DNA of 64,000 nt from Escherichia coli (GTDB taxonomy: Bacteria; Pseudomonadota; Gammaproteobacteria; Enterobacterales; Enterobacteriaceae): the NCBI RefSeq assembly GCF_030384885.1, contig NZ_CP128613.1; one strand, given 5' to 3'. How positions within the stretch are numbered: the first letter of the stretch is position 1; each line of letters begins with the position of its first letter. The notes beneath the pieces were generated by a model. The model did no database searches. It had not been told where the DNA came from and saw only the letters and a list, made by a program, of their open reading frames with translations. A program made the position numbers and the translations under genes. Of this stretch, positions 3,046 through 54,545 are shown piece after piece.

Positions 3046-3852
3046 ATGAAAGCATTCTGGCGTAACGCCGCGTTGCTCGCGGTTTCTCTGCTTCCCTTCT
3101 CTTCTGCCAACGCCGTGGCGTTGCAGGCAAAACAGTATGGCGATTTTGATCGCTATGTCCTGGCCCTCTCCTGGCAAACCGGATTTTGCCAGAGTCAACA
3201 CGATCGAAATCGTAACGAACGAGATGAATGTCGCCTGCAAACCGAAACGACCAACAAAGCTGATTTTCTGACCGTACATGGTCTATGGCCGGGATTGCCT
3301 AAATCGGTTGCGGCCCGTGGTGTTGATGAACGACGCTGGATGCGCTTTGGTTGCGCTACTCGCCCAATCCCGAATCTACCAGAGGCGCGCGCCAGCCGGA
3401 TGTGTTCATCGCCGGAAACCGGGTTATCGCTGGAAACGGCAGCTAAACTAAATGAAGTCATGCCGGGAGCTGGCGGACGTTCCTGCCTGGAACGCTACGA
3501 ATATGCCAAACACGGTGCCTGCTTTGGTTTTGATCCAGACGCATACTTCGGCACGATGGTACGCCTGAATCAAGAAATTAAAGAGAGCGAAGCCGGAAAA
3601 TTCCTTGCGGATAACTACGGTAAGACAGTGAGCCGCCGTGACTTTGACGCCGCCTTTGCCAAAAGCTGGGGAAAAGAGAACGTGAAAGCCGTTAAGCTAA
3701 CGTGCCAGGGTAACCCTGCGTATTTGACTGAAATTCAGATTTCAATCAAAGCTGACGCCATCAACGCTCCGCTTTCTGCAAACTCATTCTTGCCGCAACC
3801 ACACCCAGGCAACTGTGGCAAAACCTTTGTGATTGATAAAGCGGGTTATTAA
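3046..3852 (+). CDS. rna: periplasmic ribonuclease I (RNase T2 family)
   Basis: ORF recognised as RNase I; start chosen at MKAFWRN (signal peptide, 268 aa) rather than the upstream ATG at 3028. Confidence 0.88.
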   Translation: MKAFWRNAALLAVSLLPFSSANAVALQAKQYGDFDRYVLALSWQTGFCQSQHDRNRNERDECRLQTETTNKADFLTVHGLWPGLPKSVAARGVDERRWMRFGCATRPIPNLPEARASRMCSSPETGLSLETAAKLNEVMPGAGGRSCLERYEYAKHGACFGFDPDAYFGTMVRLNQEIKESEAGKFLADNYGKTVSRRDFDAAFAKSWGKENVKAVKLTCQGNPAYLTEIQISIKADAINAPLSANSFLPQPHPGNCGKTFVIDKAGY

Positions 3853-4000
3853 TCATCTGATTTACAAAACACGCTAATTCGTCTTCCATAAACCATGACG
3901 ATTAAGATTTATACATAATGCGCTGCATTGAGGAATTCCCTGAATGTGATGCAAATCACTTCAAAGAGTGAGCAACAGTCAGTATCATCATGTGAGTTAA

Positions 4001-4034
4001 ACCCTCGCCGCCTGACGGTGAGGGTTTTCTTTTG
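4001..4034 (+). terminator. putative intrinsic terminator in rna–rnk intergenic region
   Basis: 10-bp stem with one mismatch (accctcgccg / cggtgagggt), 5-nt loop, then a T-rich run. Confidence 0.4.
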
Positions 4035-4081
4035 GGTATGTTTATCTGCGACACTCGCAGTACCGACGACATGGAGTAAAA

Positions 4082-4492
4082 ATGTCCAGACCAACTATCA
4101 TCATTAACGACCTGGATGCCGAACGCATCGATATTCTGCTGGAGCAACCTGCCTATGCTGGTTTGCCAATCGCCGACGCGTTAAACGCAGAGTTGGATCG
4201 CGCCCAAATGTGTTCGCCAGAAGAGATGCCACACGACGTGGTGACAATGAACAGCCGGGTTAAATTCCGCAATCTTAGCGATGGCGAAGTGCGTGTGCGC
4301 ACGCTGGTGTATCCGGCTAAAATGACTGACAGCAATACTCAGCTTTCTGTTATGGCTCCGGTAGGTGCCGCACTGCTGGGGCTGCGCGTTGGCGATTCCA
4401 TTCACTGGGAACTTCCGGGCGGCGTTGCAACCCACCTTGAAGTGCTGGAACTCGAATACCAGCCAGAAGCTGCTGGCGACTACCTGCTTTAA
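4082..4492 (+). CDS. rnk: regulator of nucleoside diphosphate kinase (GreA/GreB-like)
   Basis: 136-aa ORF recognised as Rnk. Confidence 0.88.
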
Positions 4493-4847
4493 TCCCATCT
4501 GCACAAGCGACAACTCGCTTTGCCCAGAGGATGCACTCGCATCCTCTTTCCGCTCAAATATCAACCAGATTTATCATTTTGCTCTTAAGCACAGCATTCT
4601 AATCTGAACTGGTTATTCATCTGCGGAACCCCATATGAGCGAAGCTCTCAGTATCACTGCGTTTTATATATTTATAGCAGCTATTATTGTTGCTGCAGTG
4701 CTATACCTTGAACAACGCTGGTAGTACCTGGTTTTATTTATTTTCCAGATCAATCGCAAATTCAGATCGAATCAGCCTCGCAAATCATAGATTCATAATC
4801 AATAATGTGCTGTTATGTATACATGCAAAAACAAGGAGAGAATGCTT

Positions 4848-5276
4848 ATGTACAAAACAATCATTATGCCAGTGGATGTATTTGAAATGGAATTGAGCGA
4901 CAAAGCTGTTCGCCACGCTGAATTCCTCGCCCAGGATGATGGAGTTATTCATCTACTTCACGTGCTACCAGGCTCAGCCAGCCTGAGCCTGCACCGTTTT
5001 GCCGCTGATGTGCGCCGTTTTGAAGAGCATCTGCAACATGAAGCAGAAGAACGTTTGCAAACGATGGTCAGCCACTTCACCATCGATCCTTCCCGCATTA
5101 AACAACATGTCCGTTTTGGTAGTGTGCGGGATGAAGTCAATGAGTTGGCAGAAGAACTGGGGGCTGATGTTGTCGTTATCGGTTCGCGCAACCCATCGAT
5201 TTCGACCCATCTGTTAGGTTCTAACGCCTCAAGCGTTATCCGCCACGCCAATCTGCCGGTGCTGGTCGTTCGCTAA
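4848..5276 (+). CDS. uspG: universal stress protein G
   Basis: 142-aa ORF recognised as UspG; start at [10 protein letters not shown] with AAGGAGAG RBS 8 nt upstream; the longer ORF from 4815 is rejected. Confidence 0.85.
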
Positions 5277-5289
5277 TAGATAAAAGTAT

Positions 5290-5375
5290 TTATGTCGCCC
5301 TGCCCGGAGCCATCCCGGCGGGGCTTTTTATTGCAATAAAAAAGCCGCCAGGTTTGACCCCGGCGGCTAAGCAAT
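5290..5375. terminator. probable bidirectional terminator region between convergent uspG and ahpF
   Basis: two GC-rich imperfect inverted repeats (ccggcgggg-type) flanked by T-run on one side and A-run on the other. Confidence 0.4.
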
Positions 5376-5397
5376 TGCAGGTGAATCTTACTTCTTC

Positions 5398-6963
5398 TTA
5401 TGCTGTTTTGGTGCGAATCAGGTAGTCAAAAGCACTCAGAGAAGCTTTGGCACCTTCGCCAGTGGCGATGATGATCTGCTTGTACGGAACCGTCGTACAG
5501 TCACCCGCAGCGAACACGCCTTTGACGTTGGTTTCGCATTTCGCATCAATGATAATCTCGCCCATGCGGTTACGTTCGACTGCGCCTTCGAGCCAGTTGG
5601 TGTTCGGCAGCAGACCAATCTGGACGAAAATACCGGCCAGTTCGATGTTGTGAATATCGCCGCTGACACGATCTCGATATTCCAGACCTACGACTTTGCT
5701 ACCGTCGCCTTTCACTTCCGTGGTTTGCGCATTCAGAATAATGTCGACGTTTTTCAGGCTGCGCAGTTTGTCCTGCAGAACCTGGTCGGCTTTCATTTCT
5801 GGCGCAAATTCCAGCAGCGTTACGTGCTCAACGATACCCGCCAGGTCGATTGCCGCTTCCACGCCGGAGTTACCGCCGCCGATAACCGCTACGCGTTTAC
5901 CTTTAAACAGCGGGCCGTCGCAGTGCGGGCAGTAGGTCACGCCTTTGGTGCGATACTGATCTTCGCCCGGAACGTTCATGTTGCGCCATTTTGCACCGGT
6001 CGCCACGATAATGCTGCGTGCTTTCAGTACCGCGCCAGAAGCTGTTTCAATCTGATGCAGGCCACCTTCAACCGCTGCCGGGATCAGTTTGCTGGCGCTC
6101 TGGCTGTCGATCACATCAACGTCGTATTCATCAACGTGAACTTTCAGCGCACCTGCCAGTTTCTGGCCTTCGGTCTTCGGTACAGAAATGTAGTTTTCGA
6201 TATCAACGGTATCGAGGATCTGACCACCAAAACGTTCGCCCATCAAACCAGTACGGATACCTTTACGTGCGGAGTAAATTGCTGCCGCTGCACCCGCCGG
6301 GCCGGAACCGACGATTAATACGTCATAAGCATCACGCTTGTTCAGCTCTTCTGCCGCACGTTTTTCCGCGCCAGTATCAATTTTGGCGACGATTTCAGTC
6401 AACGTCATGCGACCCTGACCAAACTCTTTCCCGTTTACGAACACTGCCGGAACGCCCATCACGTTGCGATCGGTGATTTCGTTCTGGAAGGTGCCGCCGT
6501 CAATTGCAGTGTGCTTGATGCGCGGGTTCAGTACGCTCATCAGGTTCAGCGCCTGCACCACATCCGGGCAGTTGTGGCAAGAGAGCGAGTAATAGGTTTC
6601 GAATTCAAAATCACCGTCAATATGGCGAATCTGCTCCAGCAGAGACTGCGCTTCTTTCGACGGATGACCACCGGTCCACAACAACGCCAGTACCAGCGAG
6701 GTAAACTCGTGGCCCAGCGGGGAACCTGCAAAACGTGGCCCCTGGTTGGAACCTGGGTTAGTGATCAGGAAAGACGGCTTACGCACCGGCAAGCTGTTAT
6801 CTTCTTTAAAGGTGACTTTGTCTGACAGTTCTGCGATTTCAGCCAACAGTTCCTTGATTTCTGCCGATTTAGCGCTGTCATCCAGCGTGGCAATTAACTC
6901 AACAGGCTTGGTCAATTTCTCAAGGTAAGCCTTGAGTTGAGTTTTCATATTTGTGTCGAGCAT
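5398..6963 (-). CDS. ahpF: alkyl hydroperoxide reductase subunit F (flavoprotein)
   Basis: ORF recognised as AhpF; start at MLDTNMKTQ (521 aa) supported by AGGAGA RBS; upstream in-frame ATGs at 6993 lack an RBS. Confidence 0.92.
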
Positions 6964-7133
6964 GTTTATCTCCTGGGCTTTAAACATCATCATGCAAGCG
7001 GCCTCTGCGGCTACCTGGATGCAGCTTGCATCATGGTGCGGGGAAGAAAATCGGGTGCCGCAGCACCCGATTAATTAGGTGAATTTCCGAAGTATTTCGC
7101 GCCGGAGTTGGTAGCGCGAAAGACAAAGGAAAT

Positions 7134-7697
7134 TTAGATTTTACCAACCAGGTCCAGAGACGGAGCCAGAGTTGCTTCACCTTCTTTCCATTTAGCCGGG
7201 CAAACTTCACCTGGGTGAGAAGCTACGTACTGTGCTGCTTTGATTTTACGCAGCAGGTCAGACGCGTCACGGCCAATGCCTTCAGCGGTAACTTCGATTG
7301 CCTGGATGATACCCTGCGGGTCAACAACGAAGGTTGCACGGTCAGCCAGACCTTCATCTTCACGCATGTTGTCGAAGTTACGGGTCAGGGCGCCAGTCGG
7401 GTCGCCGATCATCGCATATTTGATTTTAGCGATAGTTTCAGAGCTGCTGTGCCATGCTTTGTGGGTGAAGTGAGTATCGGTAGATACTGCGTATACATCT
7501 ACGCCCAGTTTCTGCAGTTCTTCGTAGTGGTCAGCAACGTCACCCAGTTCGGTCGGGCATACGAAAGTAAAGTCAGCCGGGTAGAAGAAGAAGACACTCC
7601 AGCGGCCTTCGGTATCTTTTTCGGTGATTTCGATGAATTCGCCGTTTTTGAATGCCTGGTTTTTAAAAGGTTTAATTTTGGTGTTAATCAAGGACAT
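7134..7697 (-). CDS. ahpC: alkyl hydroperoxide reductase subunit C (peroxiredoxin)
   Basis: 187-aa ORF recognised as AhpC (2-Cys peroxiredoxin). Confidence 0.95.
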
Positions 7698-8069
7698 CTA
7701 TACTTCCTCCGTGTTTTCGATGAGATGTAAGGTAACCAATTTTTGCCGATTCGGCTAATGCGTTTCCATTATCAAATCGATAAGTTTTACCTTACAACCG
7801 TCGTAAGACAACTTTGTGAACTTTGCACCGCCAGTGGCGATAAAAAGTAAAATGGGCCCCCTTTCCAGGTGACCGTGTAATCTGAACTACCCTTTGGTAT
7901 CTTCAGCGCCTGCCTGCAGGCTGTGGTGTTGCCCTTACAAATGCAACAACGACATGGATTACAACACCCTCATAAACAAAGGGCAATCACCTGATCTAAG
8001 CTCTTACCTATGACAGTGATAGGTTATGCCTTTTACTCCATTTTTGCACTGACTGAAAAGGACAAATTA

Positions 8070-8816
8070 ATGTTAAAAAAGATACTTTTACTGGCTCTGC
8101 TTCCTACAATCGCCTTTGCAGAGGAACTTCCTGCTCCGGTAAAAGCGATTGAAAAACAGGGTATTAAGATCATCAAAACGTTCGATGCCCCCGGCGGAAT
8201 GAAAGGTTATCTCGGCAAGTATCAGGATATGGGCGTCACCATCTACCTGACTCCAGATGGTAAGCACGCTATCTCTGGTTACATGTACAACGAGAAAGGT
8301 GAAAACCTGAGTAACATGCTTATCGAAAAAGAAATTTATGCGCCAGCCGGACGCGAAATGTGGCAACGGATGGAACAATCGCACTGGCTCCTCGACGGTA
8401 AAAAAGACGCGCCAGTCATAGTCTACGTTTTCGCCGATCCGTTCTGCCCATATTGTAAACAGTTCTGGCAGCAGGCGCGCCCGTGGGTTGATTCTGGCAA
8501 AGTACAGTTGAGAACATTGTTGGTTGGGGTTATCAAACCAGAAAGTCCGGCGACAGCCGCGGCAATTCTGGCCTCTAAAGATCCCTCAAAAACCTGGCAA
8601 GAATATGAAGCCTCTGGCGGCAAACTTAAGCTAAATGTGCCTACAAACGTAAGTACAGAGCAAATGAAAGTGTTAAGCGACAACGAGAAACTCATGGACG
8701 ATCTGGGGGCAAATGTCACACCGGCTATCTATTACATGAGTAAGGAAAATACGCTGCAACAGGCCGTGGGGTTGCCCGATCAGAAAACGCTTAATATCAT
8801 TATGGGAAATAAATAG
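8070..8816 (+). CDS. dsbG: periplasmic thiol:disulfide interchange protein DsbG
   Basis: ORF recognised as DsbG with CPYC active site; start at [11 protein letters not shown] (signal peptide) with AAGGA RBS; diverges from ahpC. Confidence 0.88.
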
Positions 8817-9023
8817 AAGATAATTCATGGGTGGTTGAAATACATCCTTGCTTTTCAACCATTCTAAAAACGCATGAATTGCTTCTTCCCCTCCTGACAA
8901 CTGTGTTACTTTAGAAAAACTTAATCCAGAGTTAAGTAATAAAACATAACAAATATAAATAAAACAGTAGAATCATTGATTACAAGAATGATTTATGGAC
9001 AAGATAATATAACGGAGTATGTT

Positions 9024-9926
9024 ATGGCTAATCTTTATGATTTAAAAAAATTCGACCTCAATTTACTGGTCATATTTGAGTGCATTTATCAACACCTCAG
9101 CATTAGCAAAGCAGCAGAATCATTATATATAACGCCATCTGCCGTGAGTCAGTCGTTACAACGTTTACGCGCGCAATTTAATGACCCGTTATTCATCCGC
9201 TCAGGGAAAGGTATCGCGCCGACTACAACAGGGTTAAATCTGCATCACCATCTTGAGAAAAATCTCCGAGGCCTTGAACAAACGATCAATATCGTTAATA
9301 AGTCTGAGCTGAAGAAAAATTTTATTATCTACGGTCCTCAGCTTATTTCTTGTAGTAATAACAACATGCTAATCCGCTGTCTAAGACAAGATACTTCAAT
9401 CGATATAGAATGCCATGACATACTGCTTTCAGCTGAAAACGCCGAAGAATTGTTAGTTCAACGCAAAGCTGACCTGGCAATCACGCTACAGCCGGTGATT
9501 AGCCGCTCCGTCATCTGTATGCCATTACACACCATTCGCAATTCTCTTATTTGTAGCAATAAACATCCTCGTATTACTGATACCAGTACCCATGAACAAA
9601 TTATGGCCGAAGAATTCACCCTGCTAATATCTAAATCAGCAGGAATTGATGAAATTCAAGTAGACATAGACGAACGATTTATGAACCGTAAAATTTCGTT
9701 TCGCAGTTCCTCTTTACTCACCATAATAAATAGCATTTCTGTTACTGACTTATTGGGAATTGTCCCTACCGAGCTGTACGATTTACATCGCAATTTCCTG
9801 AAACTAAAAGAAATAAAGTTGAAGCATCCTCTTCCTGCGGTCAAGCTTTATATTTCCTATAACAAATACTCGTTAAATAATCTGGTCTTCTCCCGTTTCA
9901 TAGACCGCTTAAATGATAGCTTCTGA
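9024..9926 (+). CDS. ybdO: LysR-family transcriptional regulator
   Basis: AT-rich ORF with N-terminal LysR-type HTH region; position matches ybdO; start at MANLYDLKKF with GGAG RBS. Confidence 0.78.
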   Translation: MANLYDLKKFDLNLLVIFECIYQHLSISKAAESLYITPSAVSQSLQRLRAQFNDPLFIRSGKGIAPTTTGLNLHHHLEKNLRGLEQTINIVNKSELKKNFIIYGPQLISCSNNNMLIRCLRQDTSIDIECHDILLSAENAEELLVQRKADLAITLQPVISRSVICMPLHTIRNSLICSNKHPRITDTSTHEQIMAEEFTLLISKSAGIDEIQVDIDERFMNRKISFRSSSLLTIINSISVTDLLGIVPTELYDLHRNFLKLKEIKLKHPLPAVKLYISYNKYSLNNLVFSRFIDRLNDSF

Positions 9927-10070
9927 TTAATCATCAATGGATAATATTATATTTATACAATGAATTCATTGTATAAATATAAAATAATGTGCTCTATCTT
10001 GCTTCGTTTACCCTATAATTAGCGGATTCATCTCACGAGTCACCCAGTAACGTTCAGAGAGCGTTTTCAG

Positions 10071-11291
10071 ATGTCTATTTATAAAATCCCTCTTCCGCTG
10101 AATATTTTAGAAGCTGCACAGGAACGTATTACCTGGACACTTAACACCTTGCCCCGTGTTTGCGTTTCTTTTTCGGGGGGTAAAGATTCCGGATTAATGC
10201 TGCATCTTACCGCCGAACTTGCCAGAAAATTGGGAAAAAAAATCTGCGTTTTGTTTATCGACTGGGAAGCACAGTTCTCTTGTACCATCGACTATGTACA
10301 GTCGTTACGCGAGTTGTATACCGACGTTATTGAAGAGTTTTACTGGGTAGCACTCCCACTCAAGACGCAAAATTCCCTTTCACAATACCAACCAGAATGG
10401 CAGTGCTGGGAATCTGATGTCGAATGGGTGCGTCAGCCCCCGCAAGAAGCGATAACCGATCCTGACTTTTTCTCCTTTTACCAGCCAGGCATGACCTTCG
10501 AACAATTTGTACGTGAGTTTGCCGAATGGTTTTCACAAAAACGTCCGGCGGCGATGATGATCGGCATCCGTGCGGATGAGTCCTACAACCGTTTTGTCGC
10601 CATCGCCAGTTTAAGTAAACAACGTTTTGCCGATGATAAGCCCTGGACCACAGCCGCACCAGGCGGTCACAGCTGGTACATTTACCCCATCTACGACTGG
10701 AAAGTAGCTGATATCTGGACCTGGTATGCTAATCATAAAGCCCTATGTAACCCATTGTATAATATCATGTATCAGGCAGGCGTCCCCCTGCGTCATATGC
10801 GAATTTGCGAACCTTTTGGCCCGGAGCAACGGCAAGGATTATGGCTCTATCACGTTATCGAACCGGATCGCTGGGCTGCTATGTGCGCACGAGTTAGCGG
10901 GGTAAAAAGTGGCGGCATTTACGCCGGACATGACAATCATTTTTATGGTCATCGGAAAATCCTCAAACCAGAGCATTTAGACTGGCAAGAGTATGCATTA
11001 TTGCTGCTTGATAGCATGCCGGAGAAAACGGCTGAGCATTACCGCAACAAAATTGCCATTTACTTGCATTGGTATCAGAAAAAAGGTGTCGAGGTGCCAC
11101 AGACCCAGCACGGGGACATTGGCGCGAAAGATATCCCCTCCTGGCGGCGAATTTGCAAGGTGTTACTGAATAACGATTACTGGTGTCGGGCATTATCATT
11201 TAGCCCAACCAAAGCGAAGAATTATCAGCGTTATAACGAACGGATAAAAGTAAAACGTCAGGAGTGGGGAATACTATGCAACAACAATTAA
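10071..11291 (+). CDS. ybdN: PAPS-reductase-like (PP-loop) protein of unknown function
   Basis: 406-aa ORF; SFSGGKDS PP-loop motif near N-terminus; recognised as YbdN. Confidence 0.85.
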   Translation: MSIYKIPLPLNILEAAQERITWTLNTLPRVCVSFSGGKDSGLMLHLTAELARKLGKKICVLFIDWEAQFSCTIDYVQSLRELYTDVIEEFYWVALPLKTQNSLSQYQPEWQCWESDVEWVRQPPQEAITDPDFFSFYQPGMTFEQFVREFAEWFSQKRPAAMMIGIRADESYNRFVAIASLSKQRFADDKPWTTAAPGGHSWYIYPIYDWKVADIWTWYANHKALCNPLYNIMYQAGVPLRHMRICEPFGPEQRQGLWLYHVIEPDRWAAMCARVSGVKSGGIYAGHDNHFYGHRKILKPEHLDWQEYALLLLDSMPEKTAEHYRNKIAIYLHWYQKKGVEVPQTQHGDIGAKDIPSWRRICKVLLNNDYWCRALSFSPTKAKNYQRYNERIKVKRQEWGILCNNN

Positions 11292-11893
11292 CGCAGGATT
11301 TAACCCAATTTCTCGCCAGCTTGCCGGAAGACGATCGCATCAAAGCGATTAACGAAATCCGCCTGGCGATCCATCAGGTTAGCCCCTTTCGTGAAGAGCC
11401 AGTAGATTGTGTTCTGTGGGTTAAAAACAGCCAACTTATGCCAAATGATTACAACCCAAACAATGTGGCACCGCCCGAGAAAAAACTGTTACAAAAATCC
11501 ATTGAGATAGATGGTTTTACCCAACCTATTGTGGTCACGCACACAGATAAAAATGCTCTGGAAATCGTGGATGGCTTTCACCGTCATGAAATTGGTAAAG
11601 GCTCTAACACGTTAAAAATGCGATTAAAAGGATATTTACCGGTTACCTGTCTGGAAGGAACACGTAACGAACGCATCGCCGCGACTATTCGTCATAACCG
11701 CGCTCGTGGACGCCACCAAATCACAGCCATGTCAGAAATCGTTCGTGAACTCAGCCAGTTGGGATGGGACGACAATAAAATCGGCAAAGAGCTGGGTATG
11801 GACAGCGACGAAGTGTTGCGCCTGAAACAAATTAACGGCCTGCAAGAGTTATTTGCTGACCGTCAATATTCCCGCGCCTGGACAGTAAAATAA
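11264..11893 (+). CDS. ybdM: ParB/sulfiredoxin-like domain protein of unknown function
   Basis: 209-aa ORF overlapping ybdN 3' end by 28 nt; recognised as YbdM. Confidence 0.82.
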   Translation: MGNTMQQQLTQDLTQFLASLPEDDRIKAINEIRLAIHQVSPFREEPVDCVLWVKNSQLMPNDYNPNNVAPPEKKLLQKSIEIDGFTQPIVVTHTDKNALEIVDGFHRHEIGKGSNTLKMRLKGYLPVTCLEGTRNERIAATIRHNRARGRHQITAMSEIVRELSQLGWDDNKIGKELGMDSDEVLRLKQINGLQELFADRQYSRAWTVK

Positions 11894-13054
11894 TTACAGC
11901 TGGCGCAGGCGTTCAGCTGCCGCCAGCAACGTCGATTCCTTCTTGGCAAAACAGAGACGAATGAGCTTATGGGGGAAGGGATCGGCGCAAAATACCGACA
12001 GCGGGATCGCCGCCACGCCATGCTCCCGCGTCAGCCACTGGCAAAACTCAACGTCATCCAGCGAAGAAACCGCGCTGTAATTCACCAGCAAAAAGTAAGT
12101 GCCTTCGCAGGGTAAAATCTCCAGCCGACTCTCACTTAAGGCGTTCACCAGAATATCGCGCTTCTGGCGATAAAAGTCCGGTAACGCAAGATAGTGTTCA
12201 GGTTCTGCTCGCAGCATATCGGCAAGGGCCAGCTGCGCCGGGGTATTCACCGAAAAAGTCAGATACTGATGCACTTTGCGGATCTCGGCGCTGATGGGCG
12301 CAGGCGCAACACAATAACCCACTTTCCAGCCGGTCATATGATAAGTCTTGCCAAACGATGACACCACCACCGCCCGCTCACGCAGTTGCGGATGCGCCAG
12401 CACACTGGCATGGCCCTGCTGTGAAAAGTTGATATGCTCGTAAACTTCATCGCTAATAACAAAAATCTCGTGCCCGGCAATTGCCTGCCACAAAGCGGAA
12501 AAATCAGTCTGCTGCCAGACAGTAGCACTGGGGTTATGCGGGGTGTTAAGGATCACCAGTCGGGTGCGCTCGCTTAACAATGCGGCAAATTCCTGCCAGT
12601 CCACGCGAAAATGCGGTGGTTGCAGTGCAATACGTTTCACTATTCCACCCGCAAGCATGATGGCGGGGGCGTAACTGTCATAGCTGGGATCAAAGCAAAT
12701 CACTTCATCGCCATTGCGCACCAATGCAGTAATCGCTGCGTACAGCGCTTCCGTCGCCCCTGCTGTTACGGTGATATCGCTGTCGACATCTGGTTGATAG
12801 CCATACAGCCGTTCCGTTTTCTGAGCAATCGCCTCGCGTAATGCCGGCACGCCGGTCATGGGTGCGTATTGGTTTGCTCCCTGGGCAACGTGGTACGCCA
12901 GCCGTTCCTGCAAATAGCGCGGACCATCAAAATCAGGAAAGCCTTGCGACAGGTTAATCGCCTGGTGTTGCTGCGCCAGTGCGCTCATCTGGGTGAAAAT
13001 AGTGGTGCCAAGTTGTGGAAGTTTGCTTTGTGGAATCAGAGAGTTATTTGTCAT
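11894..13054 (-). CDS. ybdL: PLP-dependent methionine aminotransferase
   Basis: ORF recognised as YbdL (aminotransferase class I); start at MTNNSLIPQ (386 aa). Confidence 0.86.
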   Translation of the reverse strand: MTNNSLIPQSKLPQLGTTIFTQMSALAQQHQAINLSQGFPDFDGPRYLQERLAYHVAQGANQYAPMTGVPALREAIAQKTERLYGYQPDVDSDITVTAGATEALYAAITALVRNGDEVICFDPSYDSYAPAIMLAGGIVKRIALQPPHFRVDWQEFAALLSERTRLVILNTPHNPSATVWQQTDFSALWQAIAGHEIFVISDEVYEHINFSQQGHASVLAHPQLRERAVVVSSFGKTYHMTGWKVGYCVAPAPISAEIRKVHQYLTFSVNTPAQLALADMLRAEPEHYLALPDFYRQKRDILVNALSESRLEILPCEGTYFLLVNYSAVSSLDDVEFCQWLTREHGVAAIPLSVFCADPFPHKLIRLCFAKKESTLLAAAERLRQL

Positions 13055-13162
13055 TTTTATTGTGCCTGACAAAGTTGCGTGTTGAAGCCACTATAACACG
13101 ATGCTAGTATTTGGCAATCAAGACGTTTAGATGTCTAAATAAAACAATAAGGACAACACAAC

Positions 13163-14251
13163 ATGCCTCACAATCCTATCCGCGTCGTCGTTGGCCCTGC
13201 TAACTACTTTTCTCATCCCGGCAGTCTCAATCACCTGCATGATTTTTTCACTGATGAACAGCTTTCTTGCGCAGTGTGGATCTACGGTGAACGTGCACTT
13301 GCCGCGGCGCAAACCAAACTTCCAACGGCGTTTGAACTGCCAGGAGCAAAGCATATTTTGTTTCGCGGTCATTGCAGTGAAAGCAATGTGCAACAACTGG
13401 CGGCTGAGTCCGGTGACGATCGCAGCGTGGTGATTGGCGTCGGCGGCGGCGCACTGCTCGACACCGCGAAAGCCCTCGCCCGCCGTCTCGGTCTGCCGTT
13501 TGTTGCCGTTCCAACGATTGCCGCTACCTGCGCTGCCTGGACACCACTCTCTGTCTGGTACAACGATGCCGGACAGGCGCTACATTATGAGATTTTTGAC
13601 GACGCCAATTTTATGGTGCTGGTGGAACCGGAGATAATCCTCAATGCGCCGCAAGAATATCTGCTGGCAGGAATCGGTGACACGCTGGCGAAATGGTATG
13701 AAGCGGTGGTGCTGGCTCCTCAGCCAGAAACGTTGCCACTAACCGTGCGGCTGGGAATCAATAATGCGCAGGTCATTCGCGACGTCTTGTTAAACAGTAG
13801 CGAACAGGCGCTTGCCGATCAGCAAAATCAGCAGTTAACGCAATCATTTTGCGATGTGGTCGATGCGATTATCGCCGGAGGCGGAATGGTCGGTGGTCTG
13901 GGCGATCGTTTTACGCGTGTGGCGGCGGCCCATGCCGTGCATAACGGTCTGACTGTACTGCCACAAACCGAGAAATTTTTCCACGGCACCAAAGTCGCTT
14001 ACGGTATTCTGGTACAAAGCGCCTTGCTGGGTCAGGATGATGTGCTGGCGCAATTAACCGGGGCGTATCAGCGTTTTCATCTGCCGACCACGCTGGCGGA
14101 GCTGGAAGTGGATATCAATAATCAGGCAGAGATCGACAAAGTGATTGCGCACACCTTGCGTCCGGCGGAATCCATTCATTACCTGCCGGTCACGCTGACA
14201 CCAGATACGTTGCGTGCAGCGTTCGAAAAAGTGGAATCGTTTAAAGCCTGA
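13163..14251 (+). CDS. ybdH: iron-containing alcohol/hydroxycarboxylate dehydrogenase family protein
   Basis: 362-aa ORF with GGGxxxD glycerol-dehydrogenase-like motif; recognised as YbdH. Confidence 0.84.
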   Translation: MPHNPIRVVVGPANYFSHPGSLNHLHDFFTDEQLSCAVWIYGERALAAAQTKLPTAFELPGAKHILFRGHCSESNVQQLAAESGDDRSVVIGVGGGALLDTAKALARRLGLPFVAVPTIAATCAAWTPLSVWYNDAGQALHYEIFDDANFMVLVEPEIILNAPQEYLLAGIGDTLAKWYEAVVLAPQPETLPLTVRLGINNAQVIRDVLLNSSEQALADQQNQQLTQSFCDVVDAIIAGGGMVGGLGDRFTRVAAAHAVHNGLTVLPQTEKFFHGTKVAYGILVQSALLGQDDVLAQLTGAYQRFHLPTTLAELEVDINNQAEIDKVIAHTLRPAESIHYLPVTLTPDTLRAAFEKVESFKA

Positions 14252-14260
14252 CGTACAAAT

Positions 14261-14458
14261 TTAGCAGCAGCGCGCGCCGCCTTTTCCACCGTAGCGCGCG
14301 TCCTGCCGCTCACGGAAAAACTCCTCGTAGGTCATCGGCGTTTGATCGGGATGGTTAACCCGCATATGTTCGACATAGTTGTCGTAATCAGGCATACCAA
14401 TCATCAGCTTCGCCGCCTGACCTAAATATTTTCCGGCTTTTGCCAGTGAATCAAACAT
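14261..14458 (-). CDS. ybdD: small DUF466-family protein co-transcribed with cstA
   Basis: 65-aa ORF recognised as YbdD; immediately downstream of cstA on the same strand. Confidence 0.75.
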
Positions 14459-14599
14459 CAATACCTCCGGTAATCAGGTTGCTGAGAGAGTGCATTAATA
14501 GCTATCAACGCGCTCGGTCAGTCCCCTCGCCCCACCGGGGAGAGGGTTAGGGTGAGGGGGAACCCCAGGCACTACGCCAACATCCCCCTCACTCTGACT

Positions 14600-16705
14600 T
14601 TAGTGCGCGCCTTTCGCCTGCGCCTCGATCTCCTCGACATTTTCCGGCATTGGCTCATACGGCGTTTCTTTCGCCGTTGGCTTCGGATCTTTCAATGCTG
14701 CCAGTGCCGTCTTAATCGAGAACAGCGCCAGAACCACCACAACCACCATAAAGAAGATGGTTAATCCGGCATCCAGACGGTTGTTGAACACCAGTTGCGC
14801 CAGTTGTGACTCAGTATACTGCGACGGAATATTGCCGCTGTCGATCATTGCCTGGAACTTGTTAGCAATCGCCAGAAAACCGACTTTCGCATCCGGGCTA
14901 AACGCTTTCTGCCAGCCTGCGGTCAGGGTACAAATCAGCAGCCAGGCCGTTGGTACCAGCGCCACCCAGGCGTAACGTTGACGTTTCATCTTGAACAACA
15001 CCACGGCACAGAGCATCAGCGCCATCCCTGCCAGCATCTGGTTGGCAATACCAAACAGCGGCCACAGAGTGTTAATACCGCCCAGCGGATCGACCACGCC
15101 CTGATGCAGAAAGTAACCCCAAGCCAGCACGCACAGCGCCGTTGCCAGCAGGTTAGCAGGCAGTGAATCGGTCCGTTTCAGGCCCGGAGAAACCACGCCC
15201 AGCAGATCCTGCAACATAAAGCGCGCAGCACGCGTACCCGCATCCACCGCCGTCAGAATAAACAGTGCTTCAAACAGAATGGCGAAGTGATACCAGAACG
15301 CCACATCCATCATGCCACCCAGCGCGCCGTGCAGAATGTAGGCCATCCCCACCGCCAGGGTCGGCGCACCGCCCGCACGGGAAATGATCGACTGTTCACC
15401 CACTTCGCTGGCAATCTGATTTAACGTATCTGGCGTAATGCTAAAGCCCCAGCTACTCACTACCTGCGCAGCAGATGCCACTACATCCGCCGTCCCCGCC
15501 GGAGCCAGCACCGCCATCGGGCTGTTCATCGCGAAGTACACGCCCGGATCGATGATACAGGCAGAAACCAGTGCCATAATCGCCACGAAGGATTCCATCA
15601 ACATCCCGCCGTAGCCGATAAAGCACGCCTGACCTTCGTTCGCCAGCATCTTCGGTGTGGTGCCGGAAGAGATCAGCGCATGGAAGCCAGACACCGCGCC
15701 ACAGGCGATAGTAATAAACAGGAACGGGAACAGATTACCGGTCCATACCGGGCCAGTGCCATCTACAAACTTGGTCAGCGCAGGCATGGTCAGCGTCGGA
15801 CGCATAATCAAAATGCCTACCGCCAGACCGACGATAGTCCCGATTTTCAGGAAGGTAGAGAGGTAGTCACGCGGAGCCAGCAGCAACCACACCGGCAGAA
15901 CCGCCGCCACAAAACCGTAACCCACCAGCATCCAGGTCAGCTGCACGCCGGTAAAGTCAAAGTACGGTGCCCAGGTCGGGCTTTCTGCCACCCAGCCGCC
16001 AGAGATAATGGCGAAAATAAGGAATACCAGGCCAATCACCGACACTTCCCCAATGCGGCCTGGACGCAGATAGCGCAGGTAAATCCCCATGAACAGCGCC
16101 AGCGGAATGGTGAACGCAACGGTATACGTTCCCCACGGGCTATGAGTCAGGGCTTTCACCACGATCATCGCCAGTACTGCAAGAATAATGACCATGATCA
16201 TAAAGCAGGCCACCAGCGCAATCACCCCGGCGGTTGGCCCCATCTCTTCTTTAACAAGCTCGCCCAGCGAGCGACCGTCACGGCGCGTGGAAACAAACAG
16301 CACCATGAAATCCTGCACCGCACCGGCGAGAACCACCCCGGCAAGTAGCCAGATCATCCCCGGTAGGTAGCCCATTTGCGCTGCCAGTACCGGCCCCACC
16401 AACGGGCCTGCTCCGGCAATGGCCGCAAAATGGTGACCGAACAGCACTTTCTTGTCCGTCGGCACATAGTCCAGCCCGTCGTTATGGCGCACCGCTGGCG
16501 TCATACGCGTCGGGTCAACCGCCAATACATTTTTGGCGATATAAAGACCATAAAAACGGTAAGCGATCAGATAGATACAGACCGACGCCACCACAATCCA
16601 CAGCGCGTTGATCTGTTCCCCACGATTTAAAGCAATGTATCCCAGAGCAAATGCTCCCATTACAGAGAGCACTGTCCAGACGAGGTATTTCCCTGATTTG
16701 TTCAT
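14600..16705 (-). CDS. cstA: carbon starvation protein A (peptide/pyruvate transporter family)
   Basis: 701-aa polytopic membrane protein recognised as CstA. Confidence 0.92.
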   Translation of the reverse strand: MNKSGKYLVWTVLSVMGAFALGYIALNRGEQINALWIVVASVCIYLIAYRFYGLYIAKNVLAVDPTRMTPAVRHNDGLDYVPTDKKVLFGHHFAAIAGAGPLVGPVLAAQMGYLPGMIWLLAGVVLAGAVQDFMVLFVSTRRDGRSLGELVKEEMGPTAGVIALVACFMIMVIILAVLAMIVVKALTHSPWGTYTVAFTIPLALFMGIYLRYLRPGRIGEVSVIGLVFLIFAIISGGWVAESPTWAPYFDFTGVQLTWMLVGYGFVAAVLPVWLLLAPRDYLSTFLKIGTIVGLAVGILIMRPTLTMPALTKFVDGTGPVWTGNLFPFLFITIACGAVSGFHALISSGTTPKMLANEGQACFIGYGGMLMESFVAIMALVSACIIDPGVYFAMNSPMAVLAPAGTADVVASAAQVVSSWGFSITPDTLNQIASEVGEQSIISRAGGAPTLAVGMAYILHGALGGMMDVAFWYHFAILFEALFILTAVDAGTRAARFMLQDLLGVVSPGLKRTDSLPANLLATALCVLAWGYFLHQGVVDPLGGINTLWPLFGIANQMLAGMALMLCAVVLFKMKRQRYAWVALVPTAWLLICTLTAGWQKAFSPDAKVGFLAIANKFQAMIDSGNIPSQYTESQLAQLVFNNRLDAGLTIFFMVVVVVLALFSIKTALAALKDPKPTAKETPYEPMPENVEEIEAQAKGAH

Positions 16706-16885
16706 AGTTGTTATCCGTGTGCGTGTCCATAGAGATGTTACATTTTGTTTCTATAACATCTTTGTGCAATTTAACAACACAGCAACTATGTAAATCGGAG
16801 TTGAAACCAATATTTAACTTAACAATGTTAACTTGATCACTTCGTTAACTGAGTTTTCCTGCAATCTCATTTAATTCTGTCGGGT

Positions 16886-18047
<1,162 letters not shown>

Positions 18048-18048
<1 letters not shown>

Positions 18049-18905
18049 CATTTCACCTCGCGGGAGAGTAGCTTCCACCAGGCATCGATGGTCGGATTTT
18101 TCGCCAGCATGACAAAATCGATATCGCCATGCACTTTGCGCCAGCGCGCCGCCAGCGCCATCATGCGCACCGAATCCAGACCGTAATCGATCAGGTTGTC
18201 GTCATCGAACGGCTCATCGGACTCGTCCAGCAACGGCAGGATCACCTCTCGCAGCGCCGCTTTAGTTGAAGGGATCGGTGCAGGTAATAGTTCTTCGGTC
18301 ATCACCACCCGGCCAGAGCGCCCGGCTACATATTTCAGCGACATCAAATGCTCGTCACGACTGAAATCGGCCAGCGCATCTGCCACCATAAACGGTTTAA
18401 TATCGCGCATAAATGCGTCGGTTGCGGTGGTCATACAGCCAATGTGGGCGTACACCCCGGTTATAATCAGTTGGTTACGTCCACTCTCTTTGAGCATTTG
18501 TTCCAGCGGAGAACGATGAAACGCGCTGTAGCGCCACTTCACCAGCACCGTGTCGTCGGCATCTGGCGTCAGGCGATCCACCACCTTTTGCTGTTCCGGT
18601 GAACGGGTCAGGCCCGGCCCCCACATATCATTCAACAGCGCCCGATCTTCATCGCTCTGCTCTTTCGGCTGGGCGGTGTAATAAACCGGGATATTGTGCT
18701 GTTTGCAGTAGTCGCGTAGTGCCGCAATATTCGCGATCACCTGCTCCATCATCGGACAGTTCTCGCCCCAGAAGCTGACAAAATAGTCCTGCATATCATG
18801 GATTAACAACGCGGCACGTTGCGGCTCAAAGGCCCAGTTGACTTTATTCTGCGGAATATCGTGAGACTCCGGCAGTGCGTAAGCCTGTAATTTTGGAATA
18901 GCCAT
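18048..18905 (-). CDS. entB: isochorismatase / aryl carrier protein
   Basis: 285-aa ORF recognised as EntB. Confidence 0.92.
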
Positions 18906-18918
18906 CGTGTTCTCTCCT

Positions 18919-20529
18919 TCAGGCTGATGCGCGTGACGCCAGCCACTGACGTAATTGTTTTTTATCGACTTTCCCGACCGCCGTCAGCGGAAGTGAATCT
19001 ACGCACTCCACGCGATCCGGTAATTTAAATTCGGCAATACCCTGTTCACGCAGGAAACGACGCACCTGTACCGCACGCAGTGGTTCTTTTACCACCAGAT
19101 AAGCACAGCTTTTTTCGCCCATCAGCTCATCTTCCATACTCACCAGGGCGGCGTAGATCACCGCCGGATGGCGCAGTAACAGGTTTTCGATCTCTTCGGC
19201 AGCGATCTTCTCGCCGCCACGGTTGATCTGATCTTTCTCGCGCCCCTGCACGGTGATGTACCCCTCTGGATCAATAGAGATCAGATCGCCGGAACAGTAA
19301 AAACCGTTGGCATCAAAGGCGCTGGCATTGTGCTGTGGACTTTTGTAATAGCCGCGGAAGGTGTACGGCCCGCGCGTCATCAGGCGTCCAACCTCCCCTT
19401 GCGGCAGTGGATTTCCGTCAGCATCGGCAACCCACACTTCATCATCCGGACACATTGGATAGCCCTGGGTATGGATAATTTTCTCCGCGCTATCATCAAG
19501 ACGGGTGTAGTTCACCAGCCCTTCCGCCATGCCGAATACCTGCTGTAACTGGCAGCCAATCTCTGCGGGAATACGCGCCGCAAGCGTGGCAGAAAGACGT
19601 GCGCCACCGACCTGTAACAGTTTCAGCGAGGCAAGCTGCGCCCGGCTTTCACCTTCGGTCAGCGCCTGTAACCACAGGCTGACTGCTGGTGGCACCAGCG
19701 CGGTGACGTTCACCTGATGTTTTGCAATCAATGGGAAGCAGAGCGTGGCGCTAGGGTCGGCAGCCAGAACGACCGTGCCGCCAGCGAGAAAGACGCCCAG
19801 CGATCCTGGCGAACTCATGGCGTAGTTGTGAGCCGCAGGAATCGCGCACAGGTAGCGTGTCTGTTGCGTGAACTGACAAATCTCGACGCTACGACGTACG
19901 CTGTAGTAATAGTCATTGTGAGTGCGTGGGATCAGTTTCGGTGTACCGGTGGTTCCGCCGGAAAGCTGAAAATAGGCCACTTCATCGGCAGGTGACGGTG
20001 TGGCAATAAAATCCTCTGCCGGATGGTTAATCGCATCCTGCAAGTTATGTTCGCCGCTATCGTTCAGCAGTTGCACCACGCGAATGGAGGAGTGCTCTGC
20101 AACAAACGTATTAAGGAAGTCATCCCCGCTAAATAGCGCATGCTGGCGATCGGCAATCAGTAACACCGGTTTAATCTGGCTGGCATAGGCGTTCAGTTCA
20201 CTACGCTGATGGCTGAACAGCGCCAGCACCGGTGCAACGCCCAGTTTTAACAGCGCAAAAAAGGTAATATACAATTCAGCGACGTTACCCAGTTGTACCA
20301 GTGCGGTTTCACCGGGTTTAATGCCCTGACGACGCAAGCTACAGGCGAGATTATCCGCCGCCTGATTCAGTTCCCGGTAACTCAACTGACGCTCGCCGTC
20401 GATGACCGCGATGCTGTCGCTTGCGGCATGACGGGTCAGAATGTCGGTCAGCGGCAAATCCTGCCAGTAGCCTTTTTCCCGATAGCGACGGGCAAACTCT
20501 TCCGGCCAGCGGGTGAATGGAATGCTCAT
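18919..20529 (-). CDS. entE: 2,3-dihydroxybenzoate-AMP ligase
   Basis: 536-aa adenylate-forming enzyme recognised as EntE. Confidence 0.92.
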
Positions 20530-20538
20530 CCTCGCTCC

Positions 20539-21714
<1,176 letters not shown>

Positions 21715-21742
21715 ATCATCCTCCACAAAATGATAAAGGCTT

Positions 21743-21761
21743 TAATAATGATTATCATTTA
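21743..21761. promoter_or_regulatory. Fur box in divergent entC / fepB promoter region
   Basis: aataatgattatcatttat closely matches the Fur consensus GATAATGATAATCATTATC. Confidence 0.6.
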
Positions 21762-21902
21762 TATTTTCGGTCGCTAACCTAAAAGCAAACGAGCACTATG
21801 TCAACTCTTGAGGTAACGCAATCTGCAAGTCGGGGTTGCATCTGCTTGTGGTTACAATGAAAATGAGAAGCATTAACTTCATTAATAACAGGAAGCTGAT
21901 TT

Positions 21903-22859
21903 GTGAGACTCGCCCCGCTCTACCGCAACGCCCTTCTTTTAACCGGAATTTTGCTTTCAGGAATATCCGCAGTTCAGGCTGCCGACTGGCCGCGTCAGAT
22001 TACTGACAGTCGTGGTACTCATACCCTGGAAAGCCAGCCGCAACGTATTGTTTCCACCAGCGTCACCTTGACCGGCTCACTGCTGGCGATTGATGCACCA
22101 GTGATCGCCAGCGGCGCGACCACGCCGAATAACCGCGTAGCGGATGACCAGGGTTTTTTACGCCAGTGGAGCAAGGTAGCGAAAGAACGCAAACTGCAAC
22201 GTCTCTATATCGGCGAACCGAACGCCGAAGCAGTAGCCGCACAAATGCCAGATCTGATTTTAATTAGCGCGACCGGCGGCGATTCAGCGCTGGCGCTATA
22301 CGATCAGCTTTCCACTATCGCACCAACGTTAATCATCAATTACGACGATAAAAGCTGGCAGTCGCTGTTAACGCAACTTGGCGAAATTACCGGGCATGAG
22401 AAACAAGCGGCAGAGCGGATTGCACAGTTTGATAAGCAACTGACGGCGGCGAAAGAGCAAATCAAATTACCGCCGCAGCCGGTCACTGCCATTGTCTATA
22501 CCGCCGCCGCGCACAGTGCCAATCTCTGGACAGCTGAATCAGCACAAGGGCAGATGCTGGAACAACTCGGCTTTACGCTGGCCAGGTTGCCCGCAGGCTT
22601 AAACGCCAGCCAAAGCCAGGGCAAACGCCATGACATCATTCAGCTTGGTGGGGAAAATCTGGCGGCAGGGTTAAATGGCGAGTCGCTATTCCTGTTCGCC
22701 GGTGATCAGAAAGACGCCGATGCGATTTATGCCAATCCACTGCTCGCGCACCTGCCTGCAGTACAAAACAAGCAGGTTTATGCGCTGGGAACCGAGACGT
22801 TCCGACTGGATTACTACAGCGCCATGCAAGTGCTGGATCGGCTTAAGGCGCTGTTCTAA
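21903..22859 (+). CDS. fepB: ferric enterobactin periplasmic binding protein
   Basis: 318-aa ORF recognised as FepB; apparent GTG start. Confidence 0.9.
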
Positions 22860-22862
22860 GCA

Positions 22863-24113
22863 TTAACTGTCAGACGCTGTCACCTGCGGCGGCGTCTGGC
22901 GAAAACGACGCAACTCCACCAGTACCAGCAACAACAACACGCCGATAATCAACAAACCAAAACCACTCGCGCTTGCGGAGGCCACCGGCGTCATCATCGC
23001 TCCCAGACCGCCCAACAGCGCTGCGCCTATAGCATCGCCCGTCACGTTTTGTGCCGTCCACAAACCGTTAATCCGCCCTAACATCGCTTCCGGGGTTTGC
23101 GTTTGCAGCATTGTGTATTGCAGCAACGAACTAACCGCGCTCAGCCAGCCGAACAGCGCCAGGCAAACCACGCCTAAAATCCACATCGGCATCAGGCCAA
23201 ACAAACCAATGGCGAGGAACGATCCCAGCGTGGAGAGCAGCATCAATAACCCTGGTCGCGCGCTATGTGCCAGCTTCCCGCTGGTTAACGCGCCAATAGC
23301 TGCACCGAGCGGGATCGCCGCATAGAGAAAACCAATCTGTGCCGCCGACATCTGCCAGTTGCCAGCCAGCGCCGGATACAGTACCCGTACCGCGCTCGCC
23401 ATCGTCAATAAACCACCCAGCAACGCAATCCCTCCCACCAGCGGGCTGGCAAGCAGAAAACGAAATCCTGCCAGTAATGATTTCAACGGATGCTCACGCG
23501 GTTGCGGTGGCGGAGGTAGCGCCGGAAGGCTTAACAATGGCAGCAAGGTAATAAACGTGCCCGCCGCCGCCAGCCCGTAGTTCCAGGCTACGCCGCCAGT
23601 CGCCAGCAGTAAGCCGCCAATCATGGGCGAAATTACCGATCCCAGCCGCACAGTCAACATGGTGATTGCCCCGGCCTGCATTAAATTTTCACGCCCAACT
23701 AATGCCGGAGTCGCCGCCAGCAGCGCCGTAACGCCAAGTGACGCGAAAAAGCCATCCCATAATCCGAGTAAATAGATTGCCAGCAAAGACGGCTCCGGCA
23801 GCAACGCGTTCAGGCACAGACCAATGAAGCCAATGCCACAGGTGCCGCGCGCCAGCAAAATCACTTTTTTGCGCTCATAGCGATCCGCCAGCACACCGCC
23901 GACCATCAAGCCGACAAACATCGCCCCGCCGGTCAGCGTCACCGAAAGCCCCACCTGCCAGGTAGAATGCGTCATCATCTGGATCTGCACTGGCACCGCG
24001 ACGCCGAGCAAACCCAGAGAAACAATAGAGATAAAACGAGCGAGGAATACTGCGCGAAACGCCGGGTGCGTTTTCAACAGGCTGAGGTTAAGCAGCCAGG
24101 ATTGTTTATTCAT
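22863..24113 (-). CDS. entS: enterobactin exporter (MFS)
   Basis: 416-aa MFS transporter recognised as EntS. Confidence 0.9.
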
Positions 24114-24186
24114 TACAATGCCTTGCCATCAAATATTTTAAATACCTATTCTTAGGCTGCACATGCTAACATATCCAAATAAGATC

Positions 24187-24213
24187 GATAACGATAATTA
24201 ATTTCATTATCAT
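24187..24213. promoter_or_regulatory. Fur box(es) in divergent entS / fepD promoter region
   Basis: gataacgataattaatttcattatc resembles overlapping Fur hexamer repeats. Confidence 0.55.
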
Positions 24214-24223
24214 GGAAGTTCGT

Positions 24224-28358: not shown

Positions 28359-28373
28359 ATAGATAATATAAAT

Positions 28374-32470: not shown

Positions 32471-32472
32471 AT

Positions 32473-54534: not shown

Positions 54535-54545
54535 GGAGTGATAGT

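Follow-up and report, generated by a model that had tools for sequence, protein, structure and literature searches.

In an island carried by Escherichia coli ECOR-9, the gene for IbrA, a protein with PAPS_reduct and DUF3440 domains, is followed by the overlapping gene for the ParB-like protein IbrB, and the pair is cited as an activator of the eib genes of prophages (Sandt 2002, through PMC7649339). A related partnership, between a protein of the ParB/sulfiredoxin (Srx) superfamily and a PP-loop enzyme of the phosphoadenosine phosphosulfate (PAPS) reductase family, is found in DndB/DndC and SspB/SspD. Here we consider a pair of the same general make-up, ybdN and ybdM, which follows the regulator gene citR (ybdO) in 64,000 nucleotides of E. 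coli DNA (contig NZ_CP128613.1 of assembly GCF_030384885.1; the window, below). An earlier note on this DNA pictured the pair as a system "hiding" in the core genome. That is overstated, since the locus is annotated and its silencing by H-NS and control by CitR are published (PMC4720273, PMC9068703); the IbrAB kinship was already known as well. The note was right that the function of the pair is unassigned: the searchable literature contains no biochemical characterization of YbdN, YbdM, DUF3440 or IbrAB. (Papers on JSS1_004 proved irrelevant; their subject is a gp0.7-like kinase.) We add that ybdN and ybdM are an ancient, fixed two-gene module, tightly coupled, joined in other lineages by SNF2, GNAT or small-domain partners, placed among replication genes in phages, lacking a conserved cysteine cluster, and under strong purifying selection in E. 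coli although nearly silent there. Together these features argue against sulfur metabolism and defence and for a DNA-directed enzymatic module.

Comparison with described systems

The kinship with IbrA/IbrB is borne out. RefSeq names YbdM an "IbrB-like domain-containing protein" (YbdN is a "phosphoadenosine phosphosulfate reductase", and the regulator gene is citR); YbdN is a PAPS_reduct plus DUF3440 protein followed at once, on the same strand, by a ParB-like protein; and the pair is homologous to an accessory pair, found on islands and plasmids, that adjoins a PerC-family gene, as ibrB is described as doing. The comparison was made with this island or plasmid pair, 57–58% identical to YbdN at the amino-acid level, and not with the ECOR-9 IbrAB sequence. 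On these similarities we class the island-borne paralogue as an IbrAB-type copy. It is present in islands in 2146 of 5426 E. coli genomes (40%), at up to four places per genome, and its neighbours are, for example, a PerC-family gene with iuc genes or a TonB-dependent receptor gene; in TW08637 the PerC-family gene adjoins it. Unlike this accessory pair, which has no LysR gene, ybdNM belongs to the core genome, in the syntenic order dsbG-citR-ybdN-ybdM-ybdL, occurs in other Enterobacteriaceae too and is equipped with its own LysR regulator. A phenotype has been reported for IbrAB only and none for ybdNM.

Kinship with the sulfur-modification systems, which the earlier note had also raised, goes no further than the pairing of folds. 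YbdN scores 22.2 bits against the DndC equivalog TIGR03183, whose cut-off is 290.4, and its match to the PADLOC DndC model is partial (21.7 bits, 2e-5). DndC holds a [4Fe-4S] cluster on three cysteines and has a cysteine dyad besides (PMC10853773). No such cluster or dyad is conserved in the YbdN family: of five cysteine positions followed in 211 homologues, wide conservation is seen only at C372, in the C-terminal domain, while Cys246 in the core domain is found in 53%, and position 94, a cysteine in 84% of a 55-sequence alignment, is alanine in all Enterobacteriaceae, E. coli included. YbdM gives no match to the PADLOC DndB model at E<=0.1, although its DGFHR motif resembles the DGQHR and DGQQR motifs of DndB and DUF262. 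No dnd operon is present; the neighbours are dsbG, citR, ybdL and hcxA, with no DndA/IscS or other desulfurase, DndD, DndE, SspC, PglZ or BrxC/L beside the pair in the window. Nor does any such partner, or any nuclease-like family, recur around 80 bacterial and 80 viral loci, whose neighbours were grouped by sequence similarity and not individually annotated. The Ssp models return nothing, the type 4 BREX protein BrxP matches over the PP-loop only (19.8 bits, 4.6e-5), and SspA/B/C and PglZ/BrxC/BrxL partners are missing. Across PADLOC-DB 2.0 there was no significant component, only marginal, partial matches at noise level (YbdN to DndC and BrxP, YbdM to a ParB-domain methyltransferase). YbdN differs from DndC and SspD, moreover, in carrying DUF3440.

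YbdN is no true CysH either. It scores 35.9 bits against CysH (NF002537; cut-off 154) and 35.5 against the PAPS reductase equivalog TIGR02057 (cut-off 254), and, although a conserved catalytic cysteine marks CysH, the homologue alignment contains no invariant cysteine in the core domain. Set beside CysH, CysD and FAD synthase, it aligns over only about 170 of its 406 residues, has no C-terminal catalytic cysteine motif, reaches only about 10–25% of the equivalog cut-offs and lies in a different gene context. The scores below cut-off, the unconserved cysteines and the lack of recurrent partners therefore contradict each of three readings, Dnd- or Ssp-type sulfur insertion, true PAPS reduction and a restriction-modification-like defence pair, and we have rejected ybdNM as a member of the Dnd, Ssp or BREX systems.

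Phage ParB-domain DNA methyltransferases and DpdA/DpdB offer another parallel. Like ybdNM, they combine a ParB-like module with a (putatively, for ybdNM) DNA-modifying enzyme, lie in the early or replication regions of phages and are sometimes accompanied by SNF2-type helicases; DpdB is described as a ParB-like ATPase required for base insertion (PMC12839542). They differ in their catalytic partner, a methyltransferase or, in the 7-deazaguanine system Dpd, a transglycosylase, where ybdNM has a PP-loop ATP-pyrophosphatase, and no modified base is known for ybdNM.

A coupled two-gene module

An exhaustive HMMER search with YbdN over 1.84 billion representative proteins, clustered at 50% identity, returned 1687 related clusters, 219 of them below 1e-30. 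The 80 genome loci that we sampled come from a metagenome-assembled genome of Heimdallarchaeota and from Proteobacteria, Bacteroidota, Firmicutes, Verrucomicrobia and Actinobacteria. A YbdM homologue lies directly 3′ of the YbdN gene, on the same strand, in 73 of them (median gap −8 nt), and at 71 of these 73 junctions the genes overlap or are at most 15 nt apart; of the remaining seven, five are contig ends that break off no more than 320 nt past the YbdN gene, and in two the order is M, small domain, N. Because the N-then-M order recurs in loci of such distant phyla, the overlapping adjacency of ybdN and ybdM cannot be put down to chance, and the tight junction is compatible with the translational coupling that the earlier note had suspected.

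The extent of the overlap needs a correction. Counted from the annotated GTG the two genes do share 28 nt, out of frame, as had been noted, but an overlap of 16 nt is likelier: the GTG directly abuts an AGGAG and leaves no room for a spacer, whereas AGGAG lies 11 nt upstream of the ATG at 11276, and the 205 residues that this ATG gives are also the length of most YbdM orthologues. Translation of ybdM thus probably starts there.

Selection has preserved both genes. When the window alleles of ybdN and ybdM are compared with those of E2348/69 and with the K-12-like ones, the ratio of nonsynonymous to synonymous substitution rates (dN/dS) is 0.04–0.11 at dS 0.36–0.47; for comparison, the dS of ahpC is 0.02–0.05. 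A ratio this low, despite so high a dS, indicates that the silent genes are being maintained.

YbdN matches PAPS_reduct (2.5e-15) and DUF3440 (1.6e-32) in Pfam and has the SGGxDS loop on a Rossmann-like fold that marks the PP-loop ATP-pyrophosphatase (AANH) superfamily; its sequence places it in the PAPS-reductase/FAD-synthase/CysD subgroup. The SGGKDS motif reported by the earlier note is accompanied by D64, E66, R167, E170, S171, R174, D209, W210 and D214, all retained in the homologues, and many Trp and Arg residues are conserved in both domains. The closest folds are adenosine phosphosulfate (APS) and PAPS reductases and CysD, then TilS, whereas direct PDB sequence searches with YbdN and YbdM singly gave marginal matches only. 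Fusion proteins among distant YbdN homologues bring no informative additional Pfam domain. In phages the protein is PHROG 2302 (4e-77).

YbdM is a member of the ParB/Srx superfamily, as had been claimed, with the ParB N-terminal fold. Alone it falls short of the ParB_N gathering score (24.2 against 26.3 bits), but the domain is recognized in 28 of 30 family members (best 4e-10), and a profile of the family matches structures of Noc, ParB and Spo0J (6e-7 to 6e-4). A canonical ParB it is not: besides the subthreshold score, DGFHR stands in place of GERR, the window contains no ParA neighbour, and by secondary structure the protein ends after the helix-turn-helix, without the ParB C-terminal dimerization domain. 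It corresponds to PHROG 2159 (2e-69) and also matches the ParB-like N-terminus of the phage DNA methyltransferase family phrog_498 (8.8e-10). The family is unusually conserved, with the motifs NxYNPNxVAPPE..LL..SI..DG.T.P.V, VDGFHR, TIRHNRARG.H and LGMD.DE.LRLKQI.GL..LF; within DGFHR, D103, G104 and R107 are invariant and H106 nearly so.

Outside the Enterobacteriaceae, the gene immediately upstream of the pair encodes an SNF2/Helicase_C protein of about 415 residues (16 loci) or a protein of about 137 residues (16 Bacteroidales loci). The SNF2 gene recurs in 18 viral (IMG/VR) loci, and in three of these a GNAT acetyltransferase domain is fused to it (Acetyltransf_10, 4.9e-10; one fusion occupies positions 4208–5980 of its IMG/VR contig). 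The Bacteroidales protein is homologous to this fused GNAT domain (hhalign 98%, E 2.6e-13).

Relatives of YbdN occur in 224 phage records, in over 240 IMG/VR contigs and in 854 plasmids, among them virulence plasmids of Klebsiella and IncF plasmids of E. coli. The versions in proteobacterial phages are the closest non-enterobacterial relatives of the E. coli protein (40–54% identity). They add a domain of about 130–150 residues (W..W..G.Y; LTN...N..AW.GQA) that matches nothing in Pfam or PHROG. This domain either stands alone or is fused to the ParB-like protein at its C-terminus, and the enterobacterial locus lacks it. Phage modules have exonuclease, RecT, DnaB, DnaD/O-like and NinG genes as neighbours; in a Streptococcus thermophilus Brussowvirus phage the module is placed after the lysis genes, and in Arthrobacter phage Laroye it adjoins methyltransferase and terminase genes.

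The surroundings of the pair in E. coli and Klebsiella drew our attention for another reason. Of five contexts inspected, four have iron-uptake genes near it: on the Klebsiella virulence plasmid pKP1677 (10580–19102 of the sampled stretch) it lies between fecIA and iroBCDN, and elsewhere beside a TonB-dependent receptor gene, near iucABCD (these two at 8999–13369 and 8936–19790 of their sampled stretches) and, for the core ybdNM, about 5 kb from ent/fep (window 16900–36000). The fifth, on an E. coli IncF plasmid, has an autotransporter gene instead (its gene table is incomplete). SbnI, a ParB/Srx protein, regulates a staphylococcal siderophore. This proximity may merely mirror the usual cargo of virulence islands.

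Control and setting of the locus

All three genes are intact open reading frames at the positions the earlier note gave (Table 1), and their identities stand, that of the LysR regulator included: CitR has HTH_1 (8e-19) and LysR_substrate (4e-10) domains and scores 456.5 bits against the NCBIfam CitR equivalog, whose cut-off is 400. The gene is low in G+C (35–40%). ybdO is bound and repressed by H-NS and is a published case of sequence diversification between strains (PMC4720273). The protein was renamed CitR after a chromatin immunoprecipitation-exonuclease (ChIP-exo) peak was found upstream of citR-ybdNM; RNA sequencing of a citR mutant showed ybdN up by log2 5.5 and ybdM by log2 2.5, both from very low baselines, and a rise in Cys-regulon genes (PMC9068703). 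The ybdN increase may stem from read-through out of a resistance cassette, because the text of that paper does not give the construction of the mutant.

Table 1. Features of the citR-ybdN-ybdM locus, with positions in the window
Feature	Position	Strand	Description
citR (ybdO), LysR-type regulator gene	9024-9926	+	300 aa; reported repressor of ybdNM
citR-ybdN intergenic region	9927-10070		contains the palindrome and the candidate ybdN promoter
Palindromic stretch	9941-9988		48 bp, centred on GAATTC, shortly past the citR stop codon
TATAAT	10014-10019		conserved, as is the 5′ leader to the ybdN ATG; candidate ybdN promoter
ybdN	10071-11291	+	406 aa; PP-loop fold, aa 1-250; helical DUF3440 domain, aa ~237-402
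PP-loop SGGKDS, YbdN S35-S40	10173-10190	+	each residue 98-100% conserved in the 211-sequence alignment
ybdN/ybdM overlap, out of frame	11264-11291 (28 nt, GTG start) or 11276-11291 (16 nt, ATG start)	+	compatible with translational coupling
ybdM	11264-11893	+	209 aa from the annotated GTG; ParB/Srx N-terminal domain, then C-terminal helix-turn-helix-like region
YbdM DGFHR motif, D103-R107	11570-11584	+	at the position of ParB box II (GERR)
YbdM RHNRARG motif, R143-G149	11690-11710	+	invariant across phyla; candidate nucleotide- or DNA-binding element

The palindrome behind citR is AT-rich and near-perfect, with two overlapping 26-nt arms that are 92% complementary; an operator and a terminator-like element are both candidate roles for it. 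A three-allele alignment shows it degenerate in the K-12-like allele, whereas some 70 nt just before ybdN are conserved. A promoter and terminator scan gave no signal above the shuffled expectation, and no Rfam family matches window positions 7000–14500.

The alleles of citR diverged anciently: those of the window and of E2348/69 differ from the K-12-like one at a dS of about 1.9, though dN/dS is 0.03, and the intergenic regions flanking the gene (window 8817–10070) are only 64–79% identical to the K-12-like allele. More broadly, the block from dsbG to the ent genes (window 8070–20500) shows 91–98% identity per gene, against 98–99% for ahpCF. Strain 2013C-4282 differs from the window by a single base over positions 8000–13000, at 9925 (G in the window, T in 2013C-4282); the T abolishes the citR stop codon, so that the annotated CitR of that strain has 306 residues.

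Genes in the window run ahpF-ahpC, dsbG, citR, ybdN, ybdM, ybdL (on the minus strand) and hcxA, followed by the ent-fep cluster. Orthologues in Citrobacter, Enterobacter, Kluyvera and other genera retain the order dsbG-(citR)-ybdN-ybdM-ybdL. Within E. coli the locus is found in 5420 of 5426 complete genomes, at least 80% of its length in 5114, and only 18 of the 5420 exceed 95% identity to the window allele of citR-ybdNM. Some 306 of the 5420 keep less than 80% of citR-ybdN-ybdM, so the locus can be lost. In E. coli G8 an IS1 element (8248–9295 of the G8 locus, corresponding to window ~8860–11600) replaces citR, ybdN and the 5′ part of ybdM, apparently an IS1-associated deletion.

Elsewhere in the window, ybdR, for a zinc-dependent alcohol dehydrogenase, is absent between yldA and uspG (~4700–4850), as it is in E2348/69; a K-12-like genome has it at 3417–4655 of its compared stretch. 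At ~37075–38232 three tandem hokE type I toxin genes, with frameshifted reading frames between them, are annotated in the near-identical 2013C-4282. The window ends (~53360–64000) in a type VI secretion effector island that comprises vgrG, a DcrB-related gene, a 4.8-kb gene for an RHS core protein and a second RHS fragment.

What the pair may do

We tentatively favour the reading, plausible if not yet probable, that ybdNM is a domesticated, silenced module, derived from mobile elements, for DNA-directed adenylating modification or gene activation. CysD, FAD synthase and the APS and PAPS reductases make or use adenylyl-oxyanion bonds (adenylyl-sulfate, or the adenylyl-phosphate of FAD), and proteins of the ParB/Srx kind bind DNA or carry out phosphotransfer in a nucleotide-dependent way. 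Double-stranded DNA is the track along which SNF2 proteins translocate, and Mom of phage Mu is a GNAT-fold enzyme that modifies DNA. A DNA-directed reaction is favoured because of this subgroup chemistry, the pairing of ParB-like proteins with modification in the ParB-methyltransferases, DndB/DndC and DpdB/DpdA, the SNF2 or GNAT proteins that join the pair, and its place within phage replication modules. The partners, the phage position and the methyltransferase analogy also strengthen the earlier note's lead towards nucleic-acid modification, although modification itself is something that we infer.

The mechanism we have in mind begins with ybdN-ybdM as the chromosomal, domesticated copy of an IbrA/IbrB-type module that circulates on phages, plasmids and genomic islands. 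YbdM, through its ParB/Srx fold, a putative capacity to bind nucleotide and its helix-turn-helix tail, would bind DNA and position YbdN. YbdN would adenylate, at the expense of ATP, a group of the nucleic acid that would then be substituted or altered, with no sulfur chemistry involved; in other lineages an SNF2 DNA translocase, a GNAT-like acyltransferase or the small domain would join the pair. An epigenetic-type mark, or a remodelling of the DNA, might result, by which a mobile element would evade restriction or silencing; evasion of H-NS-type silencing would account for the switching on of silenced prophage eib genes by IbrAB. The E. coli pair is kept off by H-NS, and reportedly by CitR, yet preserved by selection. 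DNA as the substrate, the adenylation and the biological outcome are the steps for which we argue by analogy.

Several observations weigh against this proposal. The DNA of E. coli K-12 is well studied and we know of no such modification in it, though ybdNM is nearly silent there. The substrate could instead be RNA, protein or a small molecule, and the YbdM profile gives weak matches to the serine kinases SbnI and SerK, which have the ParB/Srx fold. Transcriptional activation of eib, the sole phenotype reported for relatives of the pair, needs no covalent modification. Nothing in the PDB hit lists is a structural analogue of the C-terminal DUF3440 domain, so that any DNA binding by YbdN is conjectural. 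Finally, when YbdN was joined to YbdM by a 30-residue Gly/Ser linker and modelled with AlphaFold2 from 25 paired sequences, the complex was not confidently predicted (predicted template-modelling score 0.54; predicted local-distance difference test score 76), new beta-strands at the N-terminus of YbdN and the C-terminus of YbdM being the only hint of one.

A more specific version, possible but in our judgement doubtful, is that YbdN/YbdM (IbrA/IbrB) and their SNF2- and GNAT-associated relatives install a hitherto unknown, non-sulfur covalent mark on DNA by PP-loop adenylation, that this serves phages and plasmids against restriction or xenogeneic silencing, and that Enterobacteriaceae, Listeria and Bacteroides each domesticated the module in their core genomes, independently of one another.

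The main rival to these proposals is that the pair acts without altering DNA at all. VirB is a CTP-dependent, ParB-like anti-silencer, and YbdM or IbrB could in a comparable way load on DNA in a nucleotide-dependent manner and displace H-NS, with YbdN or IbrA as an ATP-using helper (loader or regulator). Such a non-covalent co-activator would fit the one known phenotype of the family, the activation of eib by IbrAB (cited in PMC7649339), the presence of paralogues in H-NS-type islands beside PerC-family regulators and virulence or siderophore genes, and the ParB-like boxes and helix-turn-helix tail that YbdM retains. We nevertheless think it unlikely: more than 200 sequences show no variation in the full set of PP-loop catalytic residues, which argues for real chemistry, the SNF2 and GNAT partners and the phage replication-module position suit DNA-modifying enzymes better, and YbdM has no ParB-type C-terminal dimerization domain.

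Host anti-phage defence, the other use that the earlier note had envisaged, is highly improbable. The pair would then work, for example, by abortive infection, through depletion of ATP or other nucleoside triphosphates, or as a Dnd/Ssp-like modification-restriction pair, and the precedents of DndB/DndC and SspB/SspD, the PAPS-reductase-like character of BrxP and the weak matches of YbdN to DndC and BrxP could be cited in its favour. Every model score is far under its family cut-off, however, the iron-sulfur and dyad cysteines are not conserved, and the expected partners and nucleases fail to recur among the similarity-grouped neighbours of the 160 loci surveyed. The module is, besides, common within phages themselves, and its presence in phages and plasmids points to element-borne modification, anti-defence or regulation rather than to defence of the host.

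A role in ordinary sulfur metabolism (as a true PAPS/APS reductase or ATP sulfurylase) or as a tRNA- or RNA-modifying PP-loop enzyme, which the PAPS_reduct domain, the nearest folds (TilS among them) and the rise of Cys-regulon genes in the citR mutant might suggest, is scarcely to be expected of a protein that scores 35–36 bits against equivalog cut-offs of 154–254, carries an additional domain of 170 residues, in which its only conserved cysteine lies, and has as obligate partner a ParB-like protein with a helix-turn-helix, with SNF2 helicases that point to DNA and not to tRNA or sulfate, in an organism that already encodes cysH and cysDN.

The pair is among the few strongly conserved, clearly enzymatic modules of E. 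coli K-12 without an assigned reaction, and its relatives in gut bacteria, phages and virulence plasmids number in the thousands. Papers on phages usually enter the gene as "PAPS reductase", an "auxiliary metabolic gene" for sulfur; for YbdN/IbrA-type proteins with DUF3440 (phrog_2302) that label is very likely wrong. If the module does modify DNA or relieve H-NS silencing, the old IbrAB phenotype would be explained, and a new class of enzyme would be added to those at work in the conflict between phages, plasmids and their hosts.

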